In this document: positions 441 to 23,748 of the stretch, piece after piece
Position numbering within the stretch: the first letter of the stretch is position 1
How the letters are laid out: each line of letters starts with the position of its first letter
Source: a virus
Direction: 5' to 3' (one strand)
UHGV virus genome: UHGV-0040082
DNA: 33,970 nt
Made by a program: the position numbers and the translations under genes
The notes under the pieces: generated by a model
Told to the model about the DNA's origin: nothing
What the model saw: only the letters and a program-made list of their open reading frames with translations
The model's database searches: none

Positions 441-456
441 CCGGGCCTTTATCTTT
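429..456. terminator. Bidirectional rho-independent terminator
   Basis: Hairpin gcccgg-aattaa-ccgggc (429-446) flanked by an A-run upstream and a T-rich tract downstream; sits between convergent ORFs. Confidence 0.6.
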
Positions 457-757
457 ATTTGTATGCCGCAAATCTGCATCTTGCTTCATCCAGGTCATGA
501 ATATCGTACACGTTATCGTAAATGTAAGTTGCGACCTGTGCTTTCTGTACGTCAGTTGCGTTCGGGAACTCCATGCTTACGAAAGTAACTGCATCAACGT
601 AGTGTTTGAACATCTTTTTGTTAACGCACAGTGCGTAAATCAATACAGCAGGCCAGCAAATCAGCGCACCAAAGAATGCCAGGAGCATATTAAGATGTTT
701 TTTCTGAGCTACAACCATAGTTGCGATAAAGCCGATGAAGCAAATTACCAGTTCCAT
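455..757 (-). CDS. Small membrane protein (two predicted TM helices), moron
   Basis: 100-aa ORF with two hydrophobic stretches near the N-terminus; RBS AAGGGG about 7 nt upstream of ATG; opposite strand to tail genes. Confidence 0.5.
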   Translation of the reverse strand: MELVICFIGFIATMVVAQKKHLNMLLAFFGALICWPAVLIYALCVNKKMFKHYVDAVTFVSMEFPNATDVQKAQVATYIYDNVYDIHDLDEARCRFAAYK

Positions 758-875
758 GATACACCCCTTAATTACGTTTGTCTTCGGTTGTCATTGCCAG
801 CGCCAGTACAGCCATCACATTAAATGCTAACCATGCTGTAATATATACATCTATAACCGTTTTGATTGTTTCCAC

Positions 876-1226
876 TTATGCACCAGCCTTGATCCTGTTA
901 TGGATTGCGAACCCCTTAATTTCGCCGTCATGAATAACTTTGAGTACGTCAGGATCTTTTATTCCGTCAATCATATCTTTGTATTTTTCGTGGATCCTGT
1001 GTTTTTCTACAACCTCTTTATGTAGGAACGGTACTACCGCCTTATAATTGCACGCTGCGTTGTATATGACCTCCATGTACCCCATCCCTTCGCCGTATCT
1101 TATGTCGTATAGTTCTGCAGCAAATGCGCATTCACGTTCCGCTTTTTCAATCTTGTTATCTGCGTTCGCGTTGAATGCTAAACCAACCATTAACGCTACC
1201 ATTGCCGCTTTGATTAACCGTTTCAT
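876..1226 (-). CDS. Secreted/periplasmic protein with signal peptide, moron
   Basis: N-terminus MKRLIKAAMVALMVGLAFNANA-D looks like a Sec signal peptide with an AxA cleavage site; no recognisable domain. Confidence 0.5.
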   Translation of the reverse strand: MKRLIKAAMVALMVGLAFNANADNKIEKAERECAFAAELYDIRYGEGMGYMEVIYNAACNYKAVVPFLHKEVVEKHRIHEKYKDMIDGIKDPDVLKVIHDGEIKGFAIHNRIKAGA

Positions 1227-1238
1227 AATCCACCCCGC

Positions 1239-1325
1239 TCATTTCTTGTTTTTAAGTGCTTTCAGCATTTCTTCGATAAAGTCGGTATAGCGTTCATGCT
1301 CGTTGGGTCGGTAGTAGCCTTTCAT
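1239..1325 (-). CDS. Possible 28-aa small ORF
   Basis: ATG preceded by GAGGA at ~8 nt; TGA stop 13 nt upstream of the next gene start. Too short for confidence. Confidence 0.25.
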   Translation of the reverse strand: MKGYYRPNEHERYTDFIEEMLKALKNKK

Positions 1326-1401
1326 TTTCTTATCCTCTTTTGCTTCCTCCGGTTAATCCGGCCTTTTAAGTCCCTTTACTCTATCCCTTTCCTTTAGCCT
1401 C

Positions 1402-1430
1402 TTTATACAAAATGGAGTCGTTATAGTAAA
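1402..1430 (-). promoter_or_regulatory. Candidate sigma70-type promoter for the minus-strand cassette
   Basis: On - strand: TTTACT, 17-nt spacer, TATAAA. Weak -35. Confidence 0.3.
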
Positions 1431-1482
1431 GACAATTTGTATAAAATAGAGATCTAGATCACACTTTTCATGAGGTTAAATC

Positions 1483-3831
1483 ATGGCAACTAGTTTAGGT
1501 ACAATTTACTACGAAGTTGATGCAAAAACTGGTCAACTTCTCGTTGCTCAACGACAGGCAGACCAGGCTTTTGACAGCATCGAGCGTGGCGCAAAACGCG
1601 CTGACCGCCAGGTGAACACGCTTAAGACTTCAATCAAAGCGCTATCCAGGGTTATCCATTTGCTACTTGCTGCGGAGGCTGTACGCCAGTTTATTGACAT
1701 GGCGGAGCAAGCGAAAATGCTTCGCGTAAAAATCAAAATGCTTACTGGTGATACGGAGGCTGCCGGACGTGTTTTCGATGGCCTGAAAGAAATATCAAAA
1801 GAAACCGGGCAAAGCATGAAGGATACTGGCGAACTGTGGCAAGGCCTTGCTATATCGCTAAAAAACACATCCGCTACTGAAGGCCAATTGCTAAACCTGG
1901 TCGGTACGATTCAGAAAATGGGTGCATTAGGCGGAGCGTCAGCGGAACAGATGTCTAACTCTATGCGCCAGTTCCGCCAGTCTATAGACGGCGGCGTGCT
2001 GCGTGCTGAAGAGTTTAACAGTCTGCTTGAAAACACGCCAACCATCGTACAGACAATGGCTCGCCATATGGGGTTGTCAATGGGCCAGTTCCGCGCCGAA
2101 ATGCTGGACGGCAAGATCACGGCTGAAAGGATGGTTAACGCGATTCAGGCGGCTACACAGGAAACAAACGAGAAGTTCGCACAGTTGCCGCGCACATCCG
2201 GCATGGCCTTCAATGAGCTAAAAGTTGAGGTGATGGGACTTGTCGAACAGCTTGACGATCTTTTCGGCATATCTGACGGCGTTGTGTCAGCAATAGACTT
2301 AATCACTGGCGGCGTTGAGGGATTAGGTAAGGGCGCAAAATTCGCCGCAACATGTTTCAATACACTCAAAACCGCTGGTAGCGAGTTCATCGACATGTTT
2401 GACGATGTTGCTGTTAAGGCTGGCGAGGTTGCTGAAGAGATTATCAGGATGGTAACGCCAATCAAGGCGCTAATGGATGGGTACAAATGGATGAAGGAGA
2501 TCATTGACAAACGCAAGGAAGAGCTAAACAGCAACAACGAGAAGAAATTCGGCCCCACCATTGGCAAATTCATGACATTCAAGAATGACATAGAAAAAGC
2601 CACAGCCGCCTATGACGAGTTCATGCAGAAACAGGGTGAGGCTGACGATGGCAAGATCACCGGATTCGATCAGCCAGTTGGTAAGCCCAAAAAAGGCAAA
2701 AAGGGCAAAAATGACAAGAAATCTGAAGCTGATCGGCTTGGTGATGAAGGCATAAAAGTGTCCGACCAGTACAACAAGGACGCCGCCGCCATGCGTAAAG
2801 CGCTGGAGAACGGCAAGGCCATTGATGCTGCGTTCGCTCAGGGCAAAATAACCCTCCTTGAGTACAAGGCCGCGCAGAAAGGGATAGGCAAGGAGCTGAA
2901 GGACGAATTGGCGCAAATCCCTGTTGATGAGCTACGCGACAAATGGGATCACATAGTCAGCCCGATGGATCAGCTTAAGGGAGAAATTGACCCAATCAAG
3001 CAGGCGCAAAATGAATGGGCCGTTCGAAAACAAATGCTGATAGACCTTGGCGCTACAGAGGCGCAACAGAAACAGGCGCTATTGGAATACGAACAACAGA
3101 TCAGAGATCTGAAATGGGAGCAATGGCAGGCGCAAAGCGAAACAAACGGCCTGATTGGTGCTTGCGTTAGTGGCCTGAAAGGTGGAATGGGCAACGCCCT
3201 TACCGGCCTACTAAACGGTACTCAATCGTTAAGCGAGGTTTTCGCCAACCTGGGAAGTAGCATACTTAACACTGTTGGCAACAAACTATCAGAAATTGCC
3301 GCCAACTGGATAGCAGATCAGTTGATGATGGAAACGCAAAGCAAGGCTACCCAGGCAAGTACAACGGCTGGCGCTGTTGCTGCCCAAGGCGAGATTGCGG
3401 CGGCGGCTATCCCGGCGGCGGCGGCAACGGCTGCGTCAACTGGTGGTAGCTGGGCGGCGGCTGGTGCTGCGGCGCTTTCTGCGATCATGTCACTGGCAAC
3501 GTCAATCTTTGGCGGCGGGCGTTATAATGGTGGCTCTGTTAATGGTGGTAGTCTGTATCGCGTAGGGGAACACGGGATTCCTGAGTTATTCCAGACTAGC
3601 AACGGGCGTCAGTATATGATTCCTGGCGAGAATGGTAGGGTAATTCCTGGTCGCGATCTCTTCAGTGGTGGCGGCATCAACATGCCTGTTAACATCACTG
3701 TCCAGACCACAAACGGATTTAGCGACGAAGACAGTCGCAGACTTGAACAGACGATGGAACGCGTCGCAATGAAAATGATGGCAAGGGAATCGCAACGGCC
3801 CGGAGGGATGTTACAACCTCGCAGGAAATAA
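1483..3831 (+). CDS. Tail tape measure protein
   Basis: 782 aa, largely helical/coiled-coil composition, Ala/Gly-rich hydrophobic segment (AAIPAAAATAASTGGSWAAAGAAALSAIMSLA), located upstream of M-L-K-I-J homologs; RBS GAGGT. Confidence 0.85.
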   Translation: MATSLGTIYYEVDAKTGQLLVAQRQADQAFDSIERGAKRADRQVNTLKTSIKALSRVIHLLLAAEAVRQFIDMAEQAKMLRVKIKMLTGDTEAAGRVFDGLKEISKETGQSMKDTGELWQGLAISLKNTSATEGQLLNLVGTIQKMGALGGASAEQMSNSMRQFRQSIDGGVLRAEEFNSLLENTPTIVQTMARHMGLSMGQFRAEMLDGKITAERMVNAIQAATQETNEKFAQLPRTSGMAFNELKVEVMGLVEQLDDLFGISDGVVSAIDLITGGVEGLGKGAKFAATCFNTLKTAGSEFIDMFDDVAVKAGEVAEEIIRMVTPIKALMDGYKWMKEIIDKRKEELNSNNEKKFGPTIGKFMTFKNDIEKATAAYDEFMQKQGEADDGKITGFDQPVGKPKKGKKGKNDKKSEADRLGDEGIKVSDQYNKDAAAMRKALENGKAIDAAFAQGKITLLEYKAAQKGIGKELKDELAQIPVDELRDKWDHIVSPMDQLKGEIDPIKQAQNEWAVRKQMLIDLGATEAQQKQALLEYEQQIRDLKWEQWQAQSETNGLIGACVSGLKGGMGNALTGLLNGTQSLSEVFANLGSSILNTVGNKLSEIAANWIADQLMMETQSKATQASTTAGAVAAQGEIAAAAIPAAAATAASTGGSWAAAGAAALSAIMSLATSIFGGGRYNGGSVNGGSLYRVGEHGIPELFQTSNGRQYMIPGENGRVIPGRDLFSGGGINMPVNITVQTTNGFSDEDSRRLEQTMERVAMKMMARESQRPGGMLQPRRK

Positions 3832-3835
3832 ACAA

Positions 3836-3866
3836 AACCCCGGTACAATGCCGGGGTTATCTTTCG
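3836..3866. terminator. Rho-independent terminator after tape measure gene
   Basis: Hairpin aaccccgg-tacaatg-ccggggtt followed by a T-rich tract. Confidence 0.55.
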
Positions 3867-3975
3867 TATTTATAACCGACCATTCCGCACGATATATCCT
3901 CTTCCGAAAATTACCTGTCAAATATTCCAGTTCCCCCCGCCTGGTGAATTTATCGTCATCCATATTTCACCTCAT

Positions 3976-4500
3976 TTATGTGCCATGATTAACACCATAA
4001 TATTTTTCTTCTAAAAACATCCTGTAAGCTACTGCATCACCGAAATCGTCAAAGTATTTATTGCTTTTTCTTTTTCCGTTCACAGCTATATACACCCTCC
4101 ACTGCTCCCTAGACTTGCACCACGATACACCACGAAAACCGCTAGTATTGTTTGACTTTATTTTCCCACTCCTTACGAAATCAGCACAGTTATCAACCTG
4201 ATAACCTATGTTAAGGTTTTCTATTCTATCATCACCCCTTACGTCGTTAATGTGCCTTATTACATGCTCATCAGGTATCGGGCCGTGATGCATTACCCAT
4301 ATAACTTGATGTCTATAGTAATTTCTCTTTTTATACGTGAATATGTAGTAACCGTTTTTATTCCTGGCGCCCACCGGACCCGGTTTTCTTCTTCCTCCAT
4401 TTTCACATATTAAAGTTTTCCAATATATGTTCCCTTCACTGTATATAAACAAGTCATTCCAGTTTATGCTATTGACCATGTCGTGATTTATTTGTGACAT
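3976..4500 (-). CDS. HNH homing endonuclease with C-terminal AP2-like DNA-binding domain
   Basis: HNH-type motif (HINDVRGDDRIENLN) followed by an AP2-like segment (GFRGVSW...W.V.I..NGK...); AT-rich relative to flanking tail genes; paralog of the ORF at 22125-22631. Confidence 0.8.
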   Translation of the reverse strand: MSQINHDMVNSINWNDLFIYSEGNIYWKTLICENGGRRKPGPVGARNKNGYYIFTYKKRNYYRHQVIWVMHHGPIPDEHVIRHINDVRGDDRIENLNIGYQVDNCADFVRSGKIKSNNTSGFRGVSWCKSREQWRVYIAVNGKRKSNKYFDDFGDAVAYRMFLEEKYYGVNHGT

Positions 4501-4742
4501 CCCTTAACCCCTGATAATTCATTAAATTTATGGTGCTCAACTATTGCCCACACTTTTAGATCCTTGCTGTACACTCGCCAATCAAGGTTGGCACGGAATG
4601 CGTAGCCGTATCCGTCTTTCAGTTTTTTGGGTGCTACGTCTTTCCTCAAGAACGCGTCCAGAAGTTCTTTTGCTTTTTTGACTACATGATCAGGTGCGTT
4701 TTTCTGTGCTTTCAGATTTTTACCAATCGCTACCAATTTCAT
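4488..4742 (-). CDS. Hypothetical protein (84 aa) upstream of and overlapping the HNH gene
   Basis: ORF overlaps the HNH start by 13 nt, suggesting an operon; no domain recognised. Confidence 0.4.
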   Translation of the reverse strand: MKLVAIGKNLKAQKNAPDHVVKKAKELLDAFLRKDVAPKKLKDGYGYAFRANLDWRVYSKDLKVWAIVEHHKFNELSGVKGCHK

Positions 4743-5085
4743 AACCCACCCCGCAATCCATTAGTTGACCACTTTCAGGAAGAAATCACGGTACTCATTT
4801 TCCTTCGCGTTCATCATGAATTGACCGTATTTGAATGCGTCATCAAAGCCTTTGACTATCGCCACCTCCACCTGTTCGAATGCGTTGTTCAGCATTACCA
4901 CTACATAACGCTTCATGTTGGCCTCCTTTGTCGGTACTGCTTTTTCTTCTTGCTTTCTATATACATCTTGTCACGCCATATGTGAAGCCATTTTGTAAAC
5001 TGGTTATAATTCTTGTGATGAATTTCTCATTTTTCGCGTAGGAGCGCGTAAAGATGTATGCAATATGTAACTTATAGGGGGAATC

Positions 5086-5439
5086 ATGCCGGAAGTTTTC
5101 AGATGGACGCCGCAAAGAAGCTACAGCGTGACCAGGGAACCAAACGTATCTGTCATTAAACTTGGTGATGGGTATGAACAACGCCAGGCGAAAGGGATTA
5201 ACACATTACTTGATAGTTACACCCTGGTTTTTAAAGGCAGTAGTGCAGGATGCGGCGATGGTGGGAATGTAGCAATCCAGGCGGAAGCATTCTTGAGGGC
5301 GCGCGGCGCGGTCGAGGCTTTTTACTGGTCGCCGTCGATGGATAACGTGCAGAGGCTTTTTGTTTGTCGTAGCTGGAGTATGACCAAAGACGGGCCTGTG
5401 TATACGCTAAATGCAACATTTGAGCAAGTTATTAATTAG
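5086..5439 (+). CDS. M: Minor tail protein M (lambda gpM-like)
   Basis: 117 aa; recalled lambda gpM pattern matches (FRW.P...., GDGY.QR, C..WS, FEQV.N at the C-terminus); good RBS. Confidence 0.8.
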   Translation: MPEVFRWTPQRSYSVTREPNVSVIKLGDGYEQRQAKGINTLLDSYTLVFKGSSAGCGDGGNVAIQAEAFLRARGAVEAFYWSPSMDNVQRLFVCRSWSMTKDGPVYTLNATFEQVIN

Positions 5440-5449
5440 GGGAGGGGAT

Positions 5450-5632
5450 ATGCCTTATTTTTGTGTAGTGGAGCGCACTGGCGCTTTTACATTATTCGCC
5501 GACTATGAAATTAATGATCTTACTGTCCGGGCTGATAACGGTGAGACGTGGTATCTTCATGATATGGGTGATGGATATATCGGCTGTACGACTTGGGATG
5601 GCAAAGAAGTAGCATTTCTATCCTACGATTAA
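5450..5632 (+). CDS. Hypothetical small protein (about 60 aa) inserted after gene M
   Basis: Strong RBS GGGGAGGGG before ATG at 5450; followed by the hairpin at 5639-5660. Confidence 0.35.
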   Translation: MPYFCVVERTGAFTLFADYEINDLTVRADNGETWYLHDMGDGYIGCTTWDGKEVAFLSYD

Positions 5633-5733: not shown

Positions 5734-5982
5734 TCATAACGCACCCTTCAAATATGCCAATCCCTTATCGGTGACGAATGAATGGTTAACCTGGTTTTCA
5801 TCCGTCATGATGATGAATAACTTTTCCTGTAGGTATTTCGCTTTCGGGTACAGCGTTAAACAGACCTGGTACAGTATCCCGCGCTCAATCAGCAAATCAA
5901 TAAATTCGTGTTCATGATAACCGACGAGGCGGGCGGCCTGTTTCAACGTGTACACATAATCGCCGTGATTGCGCCGCCCCAT
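5734..5982 (-). CDS. Hypothetical protein, cassette gene 3 (82 aa, possible HTH)
   Basis: Third ORF of the minus-strand cassette; the segment YTLKQAARLVGYHEHEFIDLLIERGIL is HTH-like. No family recognised. Confidence 0.45.
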   Translation of the reverse strand: MGRRNHGDYVYTLKQAARLVGYHEHEFIDLLIERGILYQVCLTLYPKAKYLQEKLFIIMTDENQVNHSFVTDKGLAYLKGAL

Positions 5983-5991
5983 GTTGCCGCC

Positions 5992-6344
5992 TTATTTATC
6001 GAACGCAGACAAATTGTCGATACAGAAATCTTTTGCCGCTTTTTCGTATTCGCGTTTTGCTTGCGGATTGTCTGCCGGGAAACCTTTTGCGTGTATTTCA
6101 CCAGGGCAAGCCTGATCCATAGAGTCGGCAAATTCAACATTGACGTTAAAGTTAATATCTTTCGGGTTCATCTCTTCCACCTTATCCGGCACTTGCACCG
6201 GAATAACATAATAATCACGAGCACCAGACCAACAGCGGAGCAATTCACAACCTTCATTACGCGCTGATTCGAATGTGTCAAATAGTCCTATGCTTTCCCA
6301 CTCACATTTATCAGTCCACACGTCTAATCTGTATTTTTGCATTT
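5992..6344 (-). CDS. Hypothetical protein, cassette gene 2 (117 aa)
   Basis: Start placed at the internal ATG (MQKYRL) that has an AAGG RBS; no domain recognised. Confidence 0.45.
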
Positions 6345-6355
6345 TTGTTAACCTT

Positions 6356-6541
6356 TCATTTGGCAGGTTCGATCCTGTATCCCAAAACGCGGTCATCTTC
6401 AGTAAGTAAAAGCGCGTCAGTCAGTGCCTCGCCTTCGTCTTTATACAGAGCCACAGTCATTTCCCTGCCGCCTGACAGGAATACCGTCAACCTCCACACC
6501 TTATCATCCATATCACACCTCCGCGCCATTTTGTTAACCAT
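6356..6541 (-). CDS. Hypothetical small protein, cassette gene 1 (about 57-61 aa)
   Basis: First ORF downstream of the minus-strand promoter; short leader and no clear SD, so the start (6541 or 6529) is uncertain. Confidence 0.35.
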   Translation of the reverse strand: MVNKMARRCDMDDKVWRLTVFLSGGREMTVALYKDEGEALTDALLLTEDDRVLGYRIEPAK

Positions 6542-6557
6542 GCTTACTTTTGAGTAC

Positions 6558-6586
6558 AATATACATATTGTAAAAATCGCTATCAA
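6558..6586 (-). promoter_or_regulatory. Near-consensus sigma70-type promoter driving the minus-strand cassette
   Basis: On - strand: TTGATA (6586..6581), 17-nt spacer, TATATT (6563..6558); ATG about 16 nt downstream of the -10. Confidence 0.6.
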
Positions 6587-20674: not shown

Positions 20675-22090
20675 TTAAAAAGATGCGTTATTCTGATTGT
20701 TTCGTTGGTTAAATCGGCTTGCGCGATGATTCATAGACTGAATACATGCAGACGCTGCGCGGGCCTGGTCACAAGGGAGGATATTGCCGTTGTCATCAAA
20801 CCGCTGGTAAACAGTACCAGTTTTCCCGTGACGGTTTTTAGATACAATTATTTCCATGTATTCGCGTGCTACAGACTGCTCATCGTAATAACCATCGCGG
20901 TAAACCATGATGATCCTGTCAGCGTCTTGCTCAAGGTTCCCTGAATCTCGAAGATCTGAATTATTAGGGCGCTTGTTAGGTCGTTCCTCAACGCGGCGGG
21001 ATAACTGGGCCAGCGCCAACACTGGTACGCGCAATTCTTTCGCCATCATCTTCAACGACCATGACAATTGCCCTACAGCGAGATCGTGACGTTCGGCTTT
21101 AGCCAGCTTCATTAAACCGATGTAGTCAATCATTACCATGCCCAGGTTTGGGTGATCCTGCTTCATGCGTTCCGTTGTTGCGCGTATTTCCTCAACCGTT
21201 AACTGCGACGCGTCAACGATCCACACCTCAAGATTAGCAAGTGCGCTCATACCCTGGCCGACATGCGCCCAACCCTCATCATCAAGTTTTACCGGATTGC
21301 GCAGGCAGTCAGTTGATAAATTACCAGCGCCAGCAATGGCCCGTTCAGTCATCTGATCGAGTGACATTTCAAGCGTAAACAGCAAAACGCCTACCCGCTG
21401 ACCTTCGCCACCAGGGTAAGGGCGCTCGGCAGCCTCGCGAGCAATTGCAAGCGCCAACGCAGATTTACCAGACCCAGGACGTCCGGCGAGAAGTACCAAA
21501 TCAGTAGCGTTAATTCCGCCTAACATTTCGTCGAGTGGTTCTATACCTGTTTTGATGTTGTCAGAATTGACACCGCATTCCATGCGCTTGCTTAAAACGT
21601 CCGTATACTCCTGTACCGCATCACGCAACAGAACCGGAATGATCTTGTCTTTCGTTACCTTTAATTTTGAATACCGGGAATCAAAATCTTTCATCGTCTC
21701 TTTGACGACTTCAAGCGTCCCCGTTTCCAGCTTGTAGCGCATATCGTCGATGAGTTCCAACATCTGCCGCCGCTGGTGCTCTTCACGTAGTAGCTGTGCG
21801 TATCCCTTCAGGTTGGCAGCAGAAGGACACGATCGCGCCGTTTGCATTAGCGGTACAAAGTTTTCATTGCCAATCTCATCGCCAACTAATAACGCGTCGA
21901 TAAGATTCCTGTTTCTGGCTTGCGCCCGGATAACTTCAAACGCACGTTTATAAAGCGGGATCGTGAACACTTCAGGATCAAGTGTGGCGAGAACATCTTG
22001 CGCGTTAGGAGTAAGGCCACCTAACAGTAGCCCGCCGATAACTGACGCTTCACGTTCCTGCCGTAGTGAGTTTATTTGCTCAGTTACCAT
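20675..22090 (-). CDS. DnaB-family replicative DNA helicase
   Basis: 471 aa; N-terminal DnaB-like domain, Walker A GRPGSGKS, C-terminal RecA-like fold motifs. Confidence 0.85.
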   Translation of the reverse strand: MVTEQINSLRQEREASVIGGLLLGGLTPNAQDVLATLDPEVFTIPLYKRAFEVIRAQARNRNLIDALLVGDEIGNENFVPLMQTARSCPSAANLKGYAQLLREEHQRRQMLELIDDMRYKLETGTLEVVKETMKDFDSRYSKLKVTKDKIIPVLLRDAVQEYTDVLSKRMECGVNSDNIKTGIEPLDEMLGGINATDLVLLAGRPGSGKSALALAIAREAAERPYPGGEGQRVGVLLFTLEMSLDQMTERAIAGAGNLSTDCLRNPVKLDDEGWAHVGQGMSALANLEVWIVDASQLTVEEIRATTERMKQDHPNLGMVMIDYIGLMKLAKAERHDLAVGQLSWSLKMMAKELRVPVLALAQLSRRVEERPNKRPNNSDLRDSGNLEQDADRIIMVYRDGYYDEQSVAREYMEIIVSKNRHGKTGTVYQRFDDNGNILPCDQARAASACIQSMNHRASRFNQRNNQNNASF

Positions 22091-22124: not shown

Positions 22125-22631
22125 TCAGGGTAAAGAAATACCGTGATTGCTATGAAAGTTATACATTCTTTCAGCTTCTTTTCTTGCTTTTACGGCATCA
22201 TCAAATGAGTCACCGTAATAAACGTATATTGTTTTCTTTTTCCCATCAGACCCCCTTATACCTATTTGCGCGCGCCATTTATTAGTTTTCTTGTTCCATG
22301 TAACGCCAACGCATCCGCTGGTGTTACTTGATGGTATTGTTTTATTTCTGTTGTTCTCCCTCCTTGTAACCATCCTTAAGTTTTCGATTCTATCATCGCC
22401 AGGCACATGATTTATGTGATCTATTTCCATTCCATCAGGGATAGGGCCGTTAAACATTTCCCAAATAATGCGGTGACGCCATGTACAACACACACCATTA
22501 ACGCGGATAGTCCAATATCCGCTATGATGCCTACTTCCAGCAACGTCACCGGCTTTTGTTTTGTTATTTGCGCGGTTACAAGACCAATATAGAACACCGT
22601 CCCTATAGGTAAATAAATCATCCCACATCAT
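22125..22631 (-). CDS. HNH homing endonuclease with AP2-like domain (second copy)
   Basis: EIDHINHVPGDDRIENLR motif followed by GCVGVTW...W.A.I motif; start overlaps the stop of the upstream gene; paralog of the ORF at 3976-4500. Confidence 0.75.
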   Translation of the reverse strand: MMWDDLFTYRDGVLYWSCNRANNKTKAGDVAGSRHHSGYWTIRVNGVCCTWRHRIIWEMFNGPIPDGMEIDHINHVPGDDRIENLRMVTRRENNRNKTIPSSNTSGCVGVTWNKKTNKWRAQIGIRGSDGKKKTIYVYYGDSFDDAVKARKEAERMYNFHSNHGISLP

Positions 22632-23748
22632 GACACACCACCATTTCAGGCCTATATACAAAGCGACCAATTTCGCCATAATCAGGACTGTAAATGATAA
22701 CCGCCGCGCAACGTTGCGATCTCCATCCTCCATTAGTTGAATAAGCGTCTTTGCCCGCTAACGTGCCGTGGTGTTCAACTATGCCTATAGATGATTCTGT
22801 TACTGATTTATGGTGCAAATGTCCGACATGGACGTAAACATATTTCGACTTGCCGAAATCCTCGCGCCAGTCAGCTACGCAAGCAGCCAATAAATTTTCC
22901 GGCTTTTTAATAGTGTGCCCGTGGTGGTAAGCAAGAAATGTTTTACCGTACTGCGTGTGGTGGACGATAGCAGGTGACACATCAACCGTCACGCGCGGTT
23001 CATCTTCGTAAAAAGCCGCCAGCGCCGCACGTAGCCAAATCATGCCTGACTGATCGTGATTGCCTGACAACACCTGGATTTCAACATCCTTATGATTTAA
23101 CAACATTTTACCTACCGCCCGCCGGACAGACCGGATCGCCACATAAACAAGTTTTGCGTAGCGACTATCTTGATCAAGAATGTGCCCGCTTATTGGCGTC
23201 ACCGGGACCATACCGTCAGAATGAAGCAGATCGCCACCGAGGAGCAGTACGGCTTTTTCAGACATCGGAGCAGCGCCAACAGCGTAGTCAAAGAAGTCAT
23301 TCAACACGCGCTCAGCGATCCCAGTGTCGTAGCTCTCGCCGCATTCAGCTTTATGAGCAAGCGCCCCGATATGCAGATCAAACACCGGATAAAGGGCCAG
23401 GCTTTTTTGAAAATCAATTTCAGGCACTGGCACAGCCTCCGCGCGTGGTATTTCATCCGTGAAAGCGTCGCGGGCCGCTTCCATTAACTGTTCCATTTCG
23501 TCGCGGTCACGGGCTGTTTTAATCCAGCGCATGATCACATTGCCATCCTTATCGACGAGCAATGACTCAGCATTGACGCCAAAACCCGGTGCGCGACGCG
23601 TGGATATTAAACCGCGTTTCGCCAGTTTTGCGCCTAGCCGCTCGACGTTGCGTTTTGACATGCCATATTTTTCAGCGATCTGCTTGTACGTTAAACCGTT
23701 GTTATATTCAGCGATCAATTGCTCATCGCTGATTTTTCTTTGTGACAT
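22618..23748 (-). CDS. HTH domain fused to calcineurin-like metallophosphoesterase
   Basis: N-terminal HTH (LTYKQIAEKYGMSKRNVERL); then phosphoesterase motifs in order: DLHIG, GGDLLHSDG, GNHD, YHHGH, GHLHH. Confidence 0.7.
   Translation of the reverse strand: MSQRKISDEQLIAEYNNGLTYKQIAEKYGMSKRNVERLGAKLAKRGLISTRRAPGFGVNAESLLVDKDGNVIMRWIKTARDRDEMEQLMEAARDAFTDEIPRAEAVPVPEIDFQKSLALYPVFDLHIGALAHKAECGESYDTGIAERVLNDFFDYAVGAAPMSEKAVLLLGGDLLHSDGMVPVTPISGHILDQDSRYAKLVYVAIRSVRRAVGKMLLNHKDVEIQVLSGNHDQSGMIWLRAALAAFYEDEPRVTVDVSPAIVHHTQYGKTFLAYHHGHTIKKPENLLAACVADWREDFGKSKYVYVHVGHLHHKSVTESSIGIVEHHGTLAGKDAYSTNGGWRSQRCAAVIIYSPDYGEIGRFVYRPEMVVCHDVG

Follow-up and report, generated by a model that had tools for sequence, protein, structure and literature searches.

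The tail operon of this phage raises the question of how much of the DNA between its tape measure and M genes is a mobile insert, and whether that insert is of the homing endonuclease kind. The window, by which we mean the whole stretch of 33,970 nucleotides that was analysed, belongs to a temperate coliphage of the mEp021 group (mEpimmI). The paper describing the mEpimmI group mentions neither an HNH gene nor antisense cassettes. The original prediction was that an HNH/AP2 homing endonuclease gene, together with an overlapping 84-aa ORF, interrupts the tail operon as a mobile insertion. We argue that the HNH gene is real, of a selfish type and fairly ordinary. It is an optional insert of one gene at the end of a ParE-like gene that was already there. 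The features this argument relies on are collected in Table 1.

Table 1. Position, strand and basis of the features at the tape measure/M site
Feature	Position	Strand	Basis
Tape measure gene (flank)	1483..3831	+	ORF, relatives' annotations
Small ORF after the HNH gene, running through the terminator	3811..3963	-	Relatives keep a 30-aa ORF of which this is a frameshifted version
Bidirectional intrinsic terminator common to the tape measure gene and the antisense cassette	3836..3858	.	Scan, RNA fold
Relic of the former ParE-like 3' end, GGCACATAAATGA, of which the first 9 nt now serve as the last HNH codons and stop	3972..3984	-	L037 identity
HNH_3/AP2-like endonuclease-family ORF, 174 aa	3976..4500	-	Pfam HNH_3, PHROG 99, I-HmuI profile match
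Insert missing from HNH-free alleles, about 526 nt replacing about 10 nt	3981..4506	.	blastn vs E. coli LSU61 (L006)
C-terminal AP2-like putative DNA-binding region, residues 118-170	3991..4149	-	Sub-threshold Pfam AP2, WRI1 profile match, AlphaFold2 model
HNH (His-Me finger) core, residues 61-104: H64, R82 (codon 4255-4257), general-base H83, N95, N104	4189..4320	-	I-HmuI alignment
13-nt junction ATGTCACAAATAA: HNH start codon and three codons, which are ParE-like C H K * in the other frame	4488..4500	-	12 HNH-bearing loci
Resident 84-aa ParE-like gene (PF24732)	4488..4742	-	Pfam, PHROG 1525
51-aa first gene of the antisense cassette	4761..4916	-	PHROG 29810 at 1.8e-36
Putative sigma-70 promoter of the cassette: TTCACA, 17-nt spacer, TATATA	4958..4986	-	Conservation among 18 diverse loci
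Minor tail protein M gene (flank)	5086..5439	+	Pfam Phage_min_tail 1.5e-28

The interruption of the tail operon is not due to the HNH gene, since an antisense cassette splits the tape measure and M genes in relatives with and without it. The order in this cassette is the 51-aa gene and then the ParE-like gene. The former is present in 55 of 58 related loci examined and the latter in all 58. Since every one of these loci carries the cassette, the 84-aa ORF must be a resident that lies outside the insert, and the insert replaces only its last four codons. PF24732 (ParE_like) matches the 84-aa protein with 34.4 bits over a threshold of 24.4, PHROG 1525 matches it at 9e-16, and NCBI PGAP labels its homologues "ParE family toxin-like protein". 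This identity was absent from the earlier reading, as were the 51-aa gene and the small ORF, both part of the one antisense unit, and the terminator. The 51-aa gene sits upstream of the ParE-like gene, where an antitoxin would be expected. It has no match in Pfam, NCBIfam or PADLOC, and its sole match is PHROG 29810, a family of unknown function. An AlphaFold2 model of the ParE-like protein (pLDDT 60 from 18 sequences) has a strand, two helices, four strands and a helix, an order compatible with the RelE/ParE fold in a model of low confidence. RelE ranks only 18th when this model is searched with Foldseek, at a non-significant E of 3.3. Neither PADLOC nor NCBIfam matches any protein of the cassette, so a known defence system is unsupported. 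A scan of genome contigs for relatives of the ParE-like protein gave one marginal match, in a Faecalibacterium metagenome-assembled genome.

Lambdoid morons are autonomous accessory transcription units inserted between late genes, and the cassette resembles them in several ways. It faces the opposite direction, has a lower GC content than the tail genes, carries its own terminator and a conserved promoter-like sequence, and has variable cargo downstream of a conserved head. It is unlike them in that the head, made of the 51-aa and ParE-like genes, is universal in the mEp021 group and not sporadic. The terminator is present and the composition deviates, but the promoter is only a conserved promoter-like sequence. 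It lies about 40 nt 5' of the GGAGG ribosome-binding site of the 51-aa gene and is kept in an alignment of 18 loci barring 1-2 substitutions (a -35 of TTCATG in L034, a -10 of TATACA in 7 loci). We treat it as putative because a consensus scan did not call TTCACA-17-TATATA. The RNA fold of the terminator has an energy of -15.4 kcal/mol (z = -3.3), and the mEp phage records carry ARNold-predicted terminators at this position.

The boundaries of the insert are best seen by comparison with relatives that lack it. When the window is aligned by blastn to LSU61, positions 5200..4507 correspond to 1298..1990 of the reference and positions 3980..3301 to 2001..2679, a clean indel. An equivalent clean indel separates L013 from L023. 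Most relatives have no HNH gene here, rather than an insert with identical boundaries in all of them, so the idea of a mobile insert survives. It is optional, compositionally foreign, missing from most relatives and located at a recombination joint. Transposon-like terminal repeats flanking the HNH gene were looked for and none were seen, and Rfam has zero matches across the whole window.

All 12 HNH-bearing loci have the junction GG(A/G)TG(T/C)CACAA(A/G)TAA. Of 48 HNH-free loci, not one ends in exactly this way; their 3' ends read (TGC/GCN/ACT/GTG/TGT) CA(T/C) AA(G/A) T(G/A)A, and the nearest of them (L038, L040, L043 and L023) are two positions off the junction. The insert thus supplies the last four ParE-like codons itself, and these overlap the HNH start codon. 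At the other end, from GGCACATAAATGAGGTGAAATATGGATGACGATAAATTCACC onwards, the window shows no difference from the ParE-like end and downstream DNA of the HNH-free locus L037, and L051 is one base off in this stretch. Only about 13 nt can safely be taken as relic on this comparison. A longer relic reaching into the HNH C-terminus (GV(N/K)HG against GVKGAHK) was considered and rejected, for the "...YG.H.NHG" C-terminus is intrinsic to the family and occurs in L036 and in phages DTL, a Webervirus, PcCB7V and JKT5. Synonymous differences between HNH-bearing and HNH-free alleles in the last eight ParE-like codons were first read as a signature of immunity to cleavage. That reading is weakened because HNH-free alleles such as L038 have nearly the same codons.

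An HNH gene occupies the slot in about 3% of relatives sampled without bias. It was found in 1 of 45 IMG/VR loci, 1 of 7 phage records and at least 1 of 35 complete E. coli genomes carrying the region, in samples gathered with the ParE-like gene or the whole region as the query. Phages mEp010, mEp013, mEp021, mEp044 and mEp554 do not have it at the tape measure/M site, and the allele of the window has no DNA match among 5426 complete E. coli genomes. Three HNH lineages with 35-39% mutual identity share the junction, and the ParE-like genes in front of them are 88-93% identical. Related copies occur in two other slots of the tail module: an intact one lies directly upstream of M in L036, and the one in the M-L cassette of L014 is inactivated by a nonsense mutation. 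The window itself carries an HNH paralogue in its replication module.

We now consider what the 174-aa protein is. The HNH ORF had been described as AT-rich, on the opposite strand and overlapping the 84-aa ORF, and its coordinates, the 13-nt overlap and the low GC content all hold. GC is 0.375 in this gene (GC3 0.389), compared to 0.509 in the tape measure gene, 0.489 in M and 0.521 in L. Pfam HNH_3 (PF13392) matches residues 61-96 with 51.8 bits, where the gathering threshold is 24.8 (E = 6e-14), and PHROG 99, "HNH endonuclease", matches at 1e-41. The family is huge and typical of phages: tblastn reaches 1327 phage records, the cluster representatives number 37,310, and more than 4,600 representatives have E <= 1e-10. 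The dN/dS of the gene within the clade of the window is 0.05-0.12, which indicates that strong purifying selection keeps the protein.

The C-terminal half is AP2-like. Pfam AP2 scores 21.2 bits, under its gathering threshold of 33.3, and the family profile matches the AP2 protein WRI1 (7wq5) at E = 0.02. The AlphaFold2 model of this region is a beta-sheet and a helix with a pLDDT of 69-80. The HNH model is poor overall (pLDDT 50 from a 7-sequence alignment), and its highest-probability Foldseek match, the AP2 domain of TEM1, is non-significant (E > 1). Foldseek against the PDB gave no significant match for either the HNH or the ParE-like model. Since the models are too poor, fold arguments must rest on profiles.

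Phage genes that combine HNH_3 with a C-terminal AP2 have been described as the class "IPA-HNH" (Barth et al. 2023, PMC10448857). Earlier work cited there deals with AP2-HNH endonucleases of protists, cyanobacteria and phages, and HNH+AP2 homing endonuclease genes are reported to cluster near structural genes at the boundaries of genetic exchange (PMC10448857). The 174-aa protein is a new member of this known class. It has the N-terminal HNH_3 core followed by an AP2-like half, is free-standing, and falls in the range of about 160-180 aa. Its gene adjoins structural genes at an exchange boundary and is sporadic among close relatives. It is unlike the described members in several respects. It is found in a temperate mEp021-group phage, antisense to the tail genes and within a moron-like cassette. 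It starts inside the last ParE-like codons, an Asp ligand has become Arg, and the AP2 match is below threshold.

The Asp to Arg change matters for activity. The family profile matches I-HmuI (1u3e) at E = 1.8e-4; a PDB search with the HNH protein as a single sequence gave no match, so the profile is the only route to it. Shen and colleagues reportedly dealt with the roles of the I-HmuI active-site residues in 2004. In the core the alignment is gapless, and D74, H75, N87 and N96 of I-HmuI correspond to R82, H83, N95 and N104 of the window protein. H83, N95 and N104 do not vary across alignments A6 and A7. The general-base His, the Asn that positions it and the Asn metal ligand are therefore all kept, but the acidic Asp just before the general-base His is missing and Arg82 is there instead. 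R82 is invariant in the clade of the window, whereas other clades have Asp. These include the copies in mEp515, E21845 and L036 and those of phages DTL, a Webervirus, PcCB7V and JKT5, and the second HNH paralogue of the window keeps Asp too. "RH" occurs in 6 of 102 close representatives, each time with ENLxIG. I-HmuI is an intron-encoded HNH nicking homing endonuclease of phage SPO1, and the residue roles given here follow PMC2816704. The residue preceding the general-base His is a metal ligand, which is Asp in I-HmuI, Hpy99I and KpnI and His in ColE9 (PMC2816704). The His-Me finger core and three of the active-site positions are thus alike in the two proteins. The window gene is unlike I-HmuI in that it is not intron-encoded and has Arg82 for Asp74, and the alignment ends near residue 131, leaving the AP2-like part unaligned. 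The chemistry of the Arg82 protein may differ from that of I-HmuI, and Asp86 or Asp90/91 are candidates for taking the place of the missing ligand. Nuclease activity is only putative because one metal-ligand Asp is replaced by Arg. The call of an HNH/AP2 homing endonuclease is thus right as to class, with HNH_3 and an AP2-like half, but activity cannot be assumed.

One can ask whether the protein has a role in packaging instead, like gp74 of HK97, which the terminase needs for cos cleavage. An HNH protein is indeed encoded by many cos siphophages (PMC3592412). This gene, however, sits in the tail module away from the terminase and portal genes, its HNH_3 domain with an AP2-like tail is unlike the short zinc-binding gp74, and most otherwise similar viable phages do without an HNH gene at the site. 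We find a packaging role scarcely credible.

The flanks record how the gene has moved, or failed to move. L013 and L065, which have the HNH gene, are 98.8% identical to the HNH-free L023 across 600 nt upstream. In the ParE-like gene 166-169 of the first 170 nt match L023, but only 56-57 of the last 85 do. L013 and L065 match each other at 84 of these 85 positions. The divergence that begins 85 nt upstream of the HNH gene looks like a tract of co-conversion, and as sequence it could be read as either gain or loss. In a tree of the upstream flank that covers 10 HNH-bearing loci, 7 of the 10 fall in one clade, and the minimum is 4 state changes. This clustering means that much of the distribution also fits one old gain, vertical descent and occasional loss.

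On that scenario the HNH gene would be an old part of the cassette, since lost from most lineages, for instance through recombination of the short direct repeats on its two sides, and it would now be a decaying or neutral passenger that is not actively mobile. The tree is not its only evidence. All HNH-bearing loci have one junction in common, which speaks for the junction having arisen only once. On either side of the gene lie imperfect direct repeats of the ParE-like end, through which it could be lost precisely. The 3' ends of the ORFs are eroded differently between members, and a relative in another slot has a nonsense mutation. Decay does not sit well with a dN/dS this low, and the downstream relic of an HNH-free type of ParE-like end gives the event the polarity of an insertion. 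The lineages of HNH genes are also out of step with the relatedness of their flanks. The upstream flank of the window is nearest to that of mEp515, which carries a different HNH lineage. Flank pS between L012 and L013 is 0.14-0.23 and HNH pS is 0.59. It must be noted that between the window and L008 the HNH pS of 0.57 is only somewhat over the 0.30-0.45 of the flanks. Related copies in three different slots and in a different type of phage likewise do not suit simple descent. We consider the vertical scenario unlikely, though it deserves to be taken seriously.

Homing would place the gene in familiar company. Free-standing homing endonuclease genes of virulent phages adjoin their target gene, as in the seg and mob genes of T4 and F-CphI at psbA in a cyanophage. 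The window gene is like these T-even-type genes in that it adjoins a conserved candidate target with a tract like that of co-conversion in the neighbour, and the pairing of the endonuclease lineage with such a neighbour recurs in unrelated genomes. It differs in that the neighbour is a small accessory ParE-like gene and not an essential one, the host is temperate, and the cleavage site is only a candidate. The recurrence is seen in the closest cluster outside the group, P0028 (55% identity), which lies 12 nt after another PF24732 ParE-like gene on an unrelated contig that resembles a virulent myovirus. The ParE-like subfamily adjoining P0028 is matched by only 9 of 50,697 phage records.

Functional coupling, rather than the tracking of a target, could account for the conserved overlap and for the ParE-like pairing seen in an unrelated phage. 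The ParE-like gene and the HNH gene would then form a functional module of two genes, instead of one being the selfish guest of the other. In such a module the "RH" HNH protein would have been domesticated to serve the ParE-like moron, whether as its regulator or effector or as a partner that binds or nicks DNA, and the module might serve superinfection exclusion, addiction or defence. The two genes are neighbours both in the mEp group and in the unrelated phage background of L066, with 55% identity between the HNH proteins of the two. The translational overlap is found in all 12 of the mEp-group loci and across three HNH lineages. Strong purifying selection and the conservation of the non-canonical Arg82 active site inside the subfamily also point this way. 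In a co-adapted module of this kind, mobile between temperate and virulent coliphages, the HNH protein would have an altered active site, perhaps nuclease-dead or able only to nick, and could be the regulator, the effector or a sequence-specific DNA-binding partner of a toxin-like moron. Its position would then reflect function and not the specificity of a homing site. However, about 97% of the ParE-like genes in the slot are not followed by an HNH gene, nor are those of phages Kc237 and SaltyDalty. The slot is also used by HNH lineages that keep the canonical Asp, and the other "RH" members do not adjoin ParE-like genes. The cassette proteins match nothing in PADLOC or NCBIfam, and the ParE/RelE fold of the ParE-like protein is not confirmed by its model or by Foldseek. 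We think a two-gene function improbable, and a mobile co-adapted module that explains the position by function just as much so.

We argue that the gene is probably a free-standing gene of the homing endonuclease type, of the HNH_3 and AP2-like class, and that its home site is the 3' end of the ParE-like gene. It would be transcribed with the cassette from the promoter upstream of the 51-aa gene, and its translation would be coupled to that of the ParE-like gene; AGGGG sits 7 nt 5' of the HNH ATG. The AP2-like C-terminal half would bind DNA. The protein would then nick or cut HNH-free ParE-like alleles in related phages that co-infect the cell or are resident in it. The candidate target is the last 25 nt or so of the ParE-like gene. 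Repair off the HNH-bearing genome would copy the HNH gene along with neighbouring markers.

The corrected map of the locus is one where the mEp021-group tail operon is always split by an antisense accessory cassette, and the HNH gene rides along as an optional insert of one gene whose boundaries are known to within a few nucleotides. This makes the locus a clean natural system in which to study homing by temperate phages. It offers near-isogenic alleles that differ in whether they have the HNH gene, three HNH lineages that compete for one site, and a natural Asp-to-Arg variant of the active site under strong purifying selection. If the protein is active, mosaic joints within the structural modules of gut prophages would also be shaped by homing endonuclease genes. 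An inactive protein would be an example of domestication.

The region that holds the HNH gene matches temperate coliphages of the mEp021 group (mEpimmI), namely mEp010, mEp013, mEp021, mEp044, mEp515 and mEp554, as well as the phage MagusPhagus and, in a set of 5426 complete E. coli genomes, 35 prophages. Identity is 80-94%. Outside this region, the window's matches are to early and replication parts of these phages. In the paper that describes the group (PMC11893012), neither an HNH gene nor antisense cassettes are mentioned for the tail module. We compared 58 related loci: 7 annotated records, 6 contigs found through close HNH homologues and 45 IMG/VR contigs found through the ParE-like protein.

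Features of the window
Feature	Position	Strand	Remarks
Antisense cassette upstream of tape measure gene	455-1226	-	two ORFs without family: 100 aa (looks hydrophobic), 116 aa (signal-peptide-like start)
Tape measure gene	1483-3831	+	flank of antisense cassette
Small ORF behind HNH gene	3811-3963	-	same strand as HNH gene
Bidirectional terminator	3836-3858		common to tape measure gene and antisense cassette; fold -15.4 kcal/mol, z = -3.3
HNH-family ORF, 174 aa	3976-4500	-	Pfam HNH_3 51.8 bits (threshold 24.8); PHROG 99 'HNH endonuclease' 1e-41
ParE-like gene, 84 aa	4488-4742	-	PF24732 'ParE-like toxin domain', 34.4 bits (threshold 24.4)
51-aa ORF	4761-4916	-	PHROG 29810
Minor tail gene M	5086-5439	+	Pfam Phage_min_tail 1.5e-28; other flank
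73-aa ORF	5411-5632	+	PHROG 3249 (function unknown); overlaps M end
Antisense cassette between M (and trailing small ORF) and L	5734-6586	-	82-aa KilAC/antirepressor-like ORF; 134-aa ORF, PHROG 38567; 76-aa ORF, PHROG 29559
Protein J, central tail fibre, 1849 aa	8566-14115	+	~33-aa repeats
DnaB-like helicase gene	20675-22090
Second HNH paralogue	22125-22733	-	HNH_3 1.4e-21; AP2-like 5e-5

The original prediction is supported in part. Both ORFs are as it gave them, including their 13-nt overlap, and the HNH gene is AT-rich as claimed (GC 0.375, versus 0.509 in the tape measure gene, 0.489 in M and 0.521 in L). However, it took the HNH gene to interrupt the tail operon and the 84-aa ORF to be part of the inserted unit. 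All 58 loci have the ParE-like gene between tape measure and M, opposite to the tail genes, and 55 of them have the 51-aa gene ahead of it. The interrupter is therefore the cassette and not the HNH gene, which few loci carry. The ParE-like gene is a resident, and the insert swaps only its last four codons. What follows it varies: a small ORF alone (NRZ96606, LSU61), several small ORFs (mEp010, MagusPhagus), a zinc-ribbon protein (mEp021) or an HNH gene.

Other parts of the tail module deserve a remark. It has two further antisense cassettes, of which the one between M and L is kept in relatives. The 73-aa ORF at the end of M exists in relatives as a 61-aa gene with a terminator behind it. Protein J has a long repeat run at roughly residues 930-1330 (…VNASIS.LDKKTDASVKRLDQAIADETSAR…) that looks like an inserted coiled-coil-like array.

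Comparison with insert-free relatives, the check proposed originally, does define the boundaries. With E. coli LSU61 as the HNH-free reference, window 5200..4507 pairs with reference 1298..1990 and window 3980..3301 with reference 2001..2679. Thus 526 nt in the window (3981-4506) replace 10 nt. The loci L013 (with the HNH gene) and L023 (without it) give an equivalent picture. In 12 of 12 HNH-bearing loci the ParE-like gene ends in GG(A/G)TG(T/C)CACAA(A/G)TAA, where (A/G)TG is the HNH start codon. HNH-free genes end in (TGC/GCN/ACT/GTG/TGT) CA(T/C) AA(G/A) T(G/A)A. The exact HNH-bearing end is in 0 of 48 such loci, and the nearest (L038/L040/L043 and L023) differ at two positions. In three bearers (L012, L013, L065) insertion has turned the ParE-like C-terminus, usually ...GAHK in their subtype, into ...GCHK.

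Downstream of the window HNH gene, GGCACATAAATGAGGTGAAATATGGATGACGATAAATTCACC is identical to the ParE-like end and downstream sequence of the HNH-free locus L037, and L051 is one base off. A 13-nt relic of the former ParE-like end therefore survives at 3972-3984, its first 9 nt serving as the last HNH codons and stop. The insert supplies the ParE-like gene with four new final codons, and the original ones lie behind it. Beyond '...EEKYYG' the HNH ORF varies among members because each reads into whatever comes next. We argue the simplest history would be homologous exchange within the ParE-like gene at one boundary and, at the other, illegitimate joining to the end of the recipient's gene.

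Two observations concern this neighborhood. The conserved 30-aa ORF of relatives (M(E/D)DDKFTWREIWNIWQV...) is frameshifted in the window's small ORF by one extra G, so the window ORF runs through the terminator. NRZ96606-type alleles have still another frame in this element. Decay of the small ORF is one possible reading; another is that the conserved element does not encode a protein. There is also a 13-nt inverted match, 92% complementary, between the tape measure 3' end (3804-3816, AGGGATGTTACAA) and the ParE-like-HNH junction (4492-4504, AGGGATGTCACAA on the other strand), which is probably chance.

Most relatives lack the HNH gene. It lies directly behind the ParE-like gene in L015 alone of 45 IMG/VR loci, in mEp515 alone of 7 phage records and, of the 35 complete E. 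coli genomes with the region, in E21845 at least. No DNA match to the window's HNH allele was found in the 5426 complete E. coli genomes. At protein level, the allele's best match among the collected phages reaches 42% identity. A larger protein collection has relatives at 74-91% identity, and all six looked up occupy exactly the same slot.

Several findings speak for mobility of the HNH gene. Three HNH lineages use this junction, behind ParE-like genes that are 88-93% identical. The mEp515 and E21845 types are 35-39% identical to the window type and ~51% to each other. One old gain followed by vertical descent is also compatible with much of the HNH distribution: in the upstream-flank tree 7 of the 10 HNH-bearing loci included fall into a single clade and at least 4 state changes are needed, and between the window and L008 the HNH gene has a synonymous divergence (pS) of 0.57, just a moderate excess over the 0.30-0.45 of the flanks. 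In the same tree the window is sister to mEp515, the bearer of another HNH lineage. The window type also sits behind both major ParE-like subtypes (EHHKFNELSGV... and DHL.YNR.CGV...). L013 and L065, both with the gene, are 98.8% identical to HNH-free L023 across 600 nt upstream. In the ParE-like gene 166-169 of the first 170 nt match L023, then 56-57 of the last 85, where L013 and L065 match each other at 84. The pattern resembles a co-conversion tract, with either gain or loss as its possible direction.

HNH copies also occur elsewhere. L036 has an intact 157-aa relative (2182-2655, tail-gene strand) immediately upstream of M and co-oriented with it. L014 has a copy in the M-L antisense cassette (1300-1785) whose reading frame is broken by a stop codon at the IENL motif's Glu. 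The window's second paralogue lies between the helicase gene and a replication gene and has a canonical 'IDHINH...IENLRMVT' motif. It shares 40% identity with the tail-slot HNH protein and 46-48% with the mEp515 and E21845 tail-slot copies. Its counterpart in mEp021 and mEp515 is the 'homing endonuclease' annotated at ~6.1 kb.

HNH genes of this kind are linked to ParE-like genes outside the mEp group too. An exhaustive HMMER search gave 37,310 cluster representatives at E <= 0.001, and P0028 (55% identity) is the only one closer than ~45%. It lies 12 nt behind another PF24732 ParE-like gene (88 aa, 42-48% identity to the mEp ones); the pair is at 2722-3495 of contig L066 (Logan SRR31518592). 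This contig is virulent-myovirus-like. It is packed with small co-oriented genes and has DNA similarity only to Phapecoctavirus/Justusliebigvirus-like virulent coliphages of ~145 kb. Its HNH gene has its own strong AGAGGAGG ribosome-binding site and is followed by a terminator and then a strong promoter. Since the ParE-like subfamily is rare in phages (9 of 50,697 records match), repeated adjacency is very unlikely by chance. We read it as an endonuclease lineage that would be tracking its target gene. The alternative, which we keep, is that the two genes form a functional pair. The link has its limits: no HNH gene follows the ParE-like genes of the phages Kc237 and SaltyDalty, and no ParE-like neighbour was found for other members of the 'RH' subfamily described next.

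The family profile matches I-HmuI (1u3e) at E = 1.8e-4 with a gap-free core. H75, the general base, corresponds to window H83; N87, which positions it, to N95; and the metal ligand N96 to N104. The other metal ligand, D74, is replaced by R82. HNH enzymes bind metal through the residue just ahead of this His; it is Asp in I-HmuI, Hpy99I and KpnI but His in ColE9, and its replacement in HpyAV led to loss of activity (PMC2816704). Arg82 is invariant across the window clade. Asp stands at this position in the mEp515, E21845 and L036 copies, in four homologues from virulent phages and in the window's second paralogue. 'RH' is the signature of a minority subfamily: 6 of 102 close representatives have it, always with ENLxIG(T/Y/S) instead of ENLRLVT. 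Within the window clade dN/dS is 0.05-0.12, with synonymous sites near saturation; the protein, a putative nuclease, is therefore maintained by selection. Weak but concordant signals suggest an AP2-like C-terminal half. Pfam AP2 scores 21.2 bits (below the threshold of 33.3), the family profile matches the AP2 protein WRI1 at E = 0.02, and the modelled half is a sheet plus helix (pLDDT 69-80) whose highest-probability Foldseek match, not significant, is the TEM1 AP2 domain.

Between the 51-aa gene and M, the intergenic sequence shows high conservation across 18 diverse loci. It includes TTCACA and TATA(T/C)A, separated by 17 nt and lying ~40 nt ahead of the 51-aa gene's GGAGG ribosome-binding site. 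This is a putative cassette promoter, which a strict promoter consensus scan did not call. A 16-nt inverted repeat in the same region (4961-4976 / 5044-5059, 81% complementary) keeps both arms in 18 relatives. One arm overlaps the putative -10 element, and the repeat may be an operator. Since the HNH gene begins within the stop region of the ParE-like gene, 7 nt after an AGGGG, its translation is probably coupled to that of the ParE-like gene.

Phage homing-endonuclease genes that combine HNH and AP2 have been named 'IPA-HNH', and they are reported to sit close to structural genes and at boundaries of genetic exchange (PMC10448857). Judged by its sequence, the window HNH gene fits this class. 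Several things are new relative to it: the home site is the 3' end of a ParE-like gene, within a cassette that runs antisense to the tail genes of a temperate phage; the neighbouring gene's end is replaced and a relic left behind; one junction is common to three lineages; and the protein is an Asp-to-Arg variant. All the observed features are within known homing-endonuclease biology.
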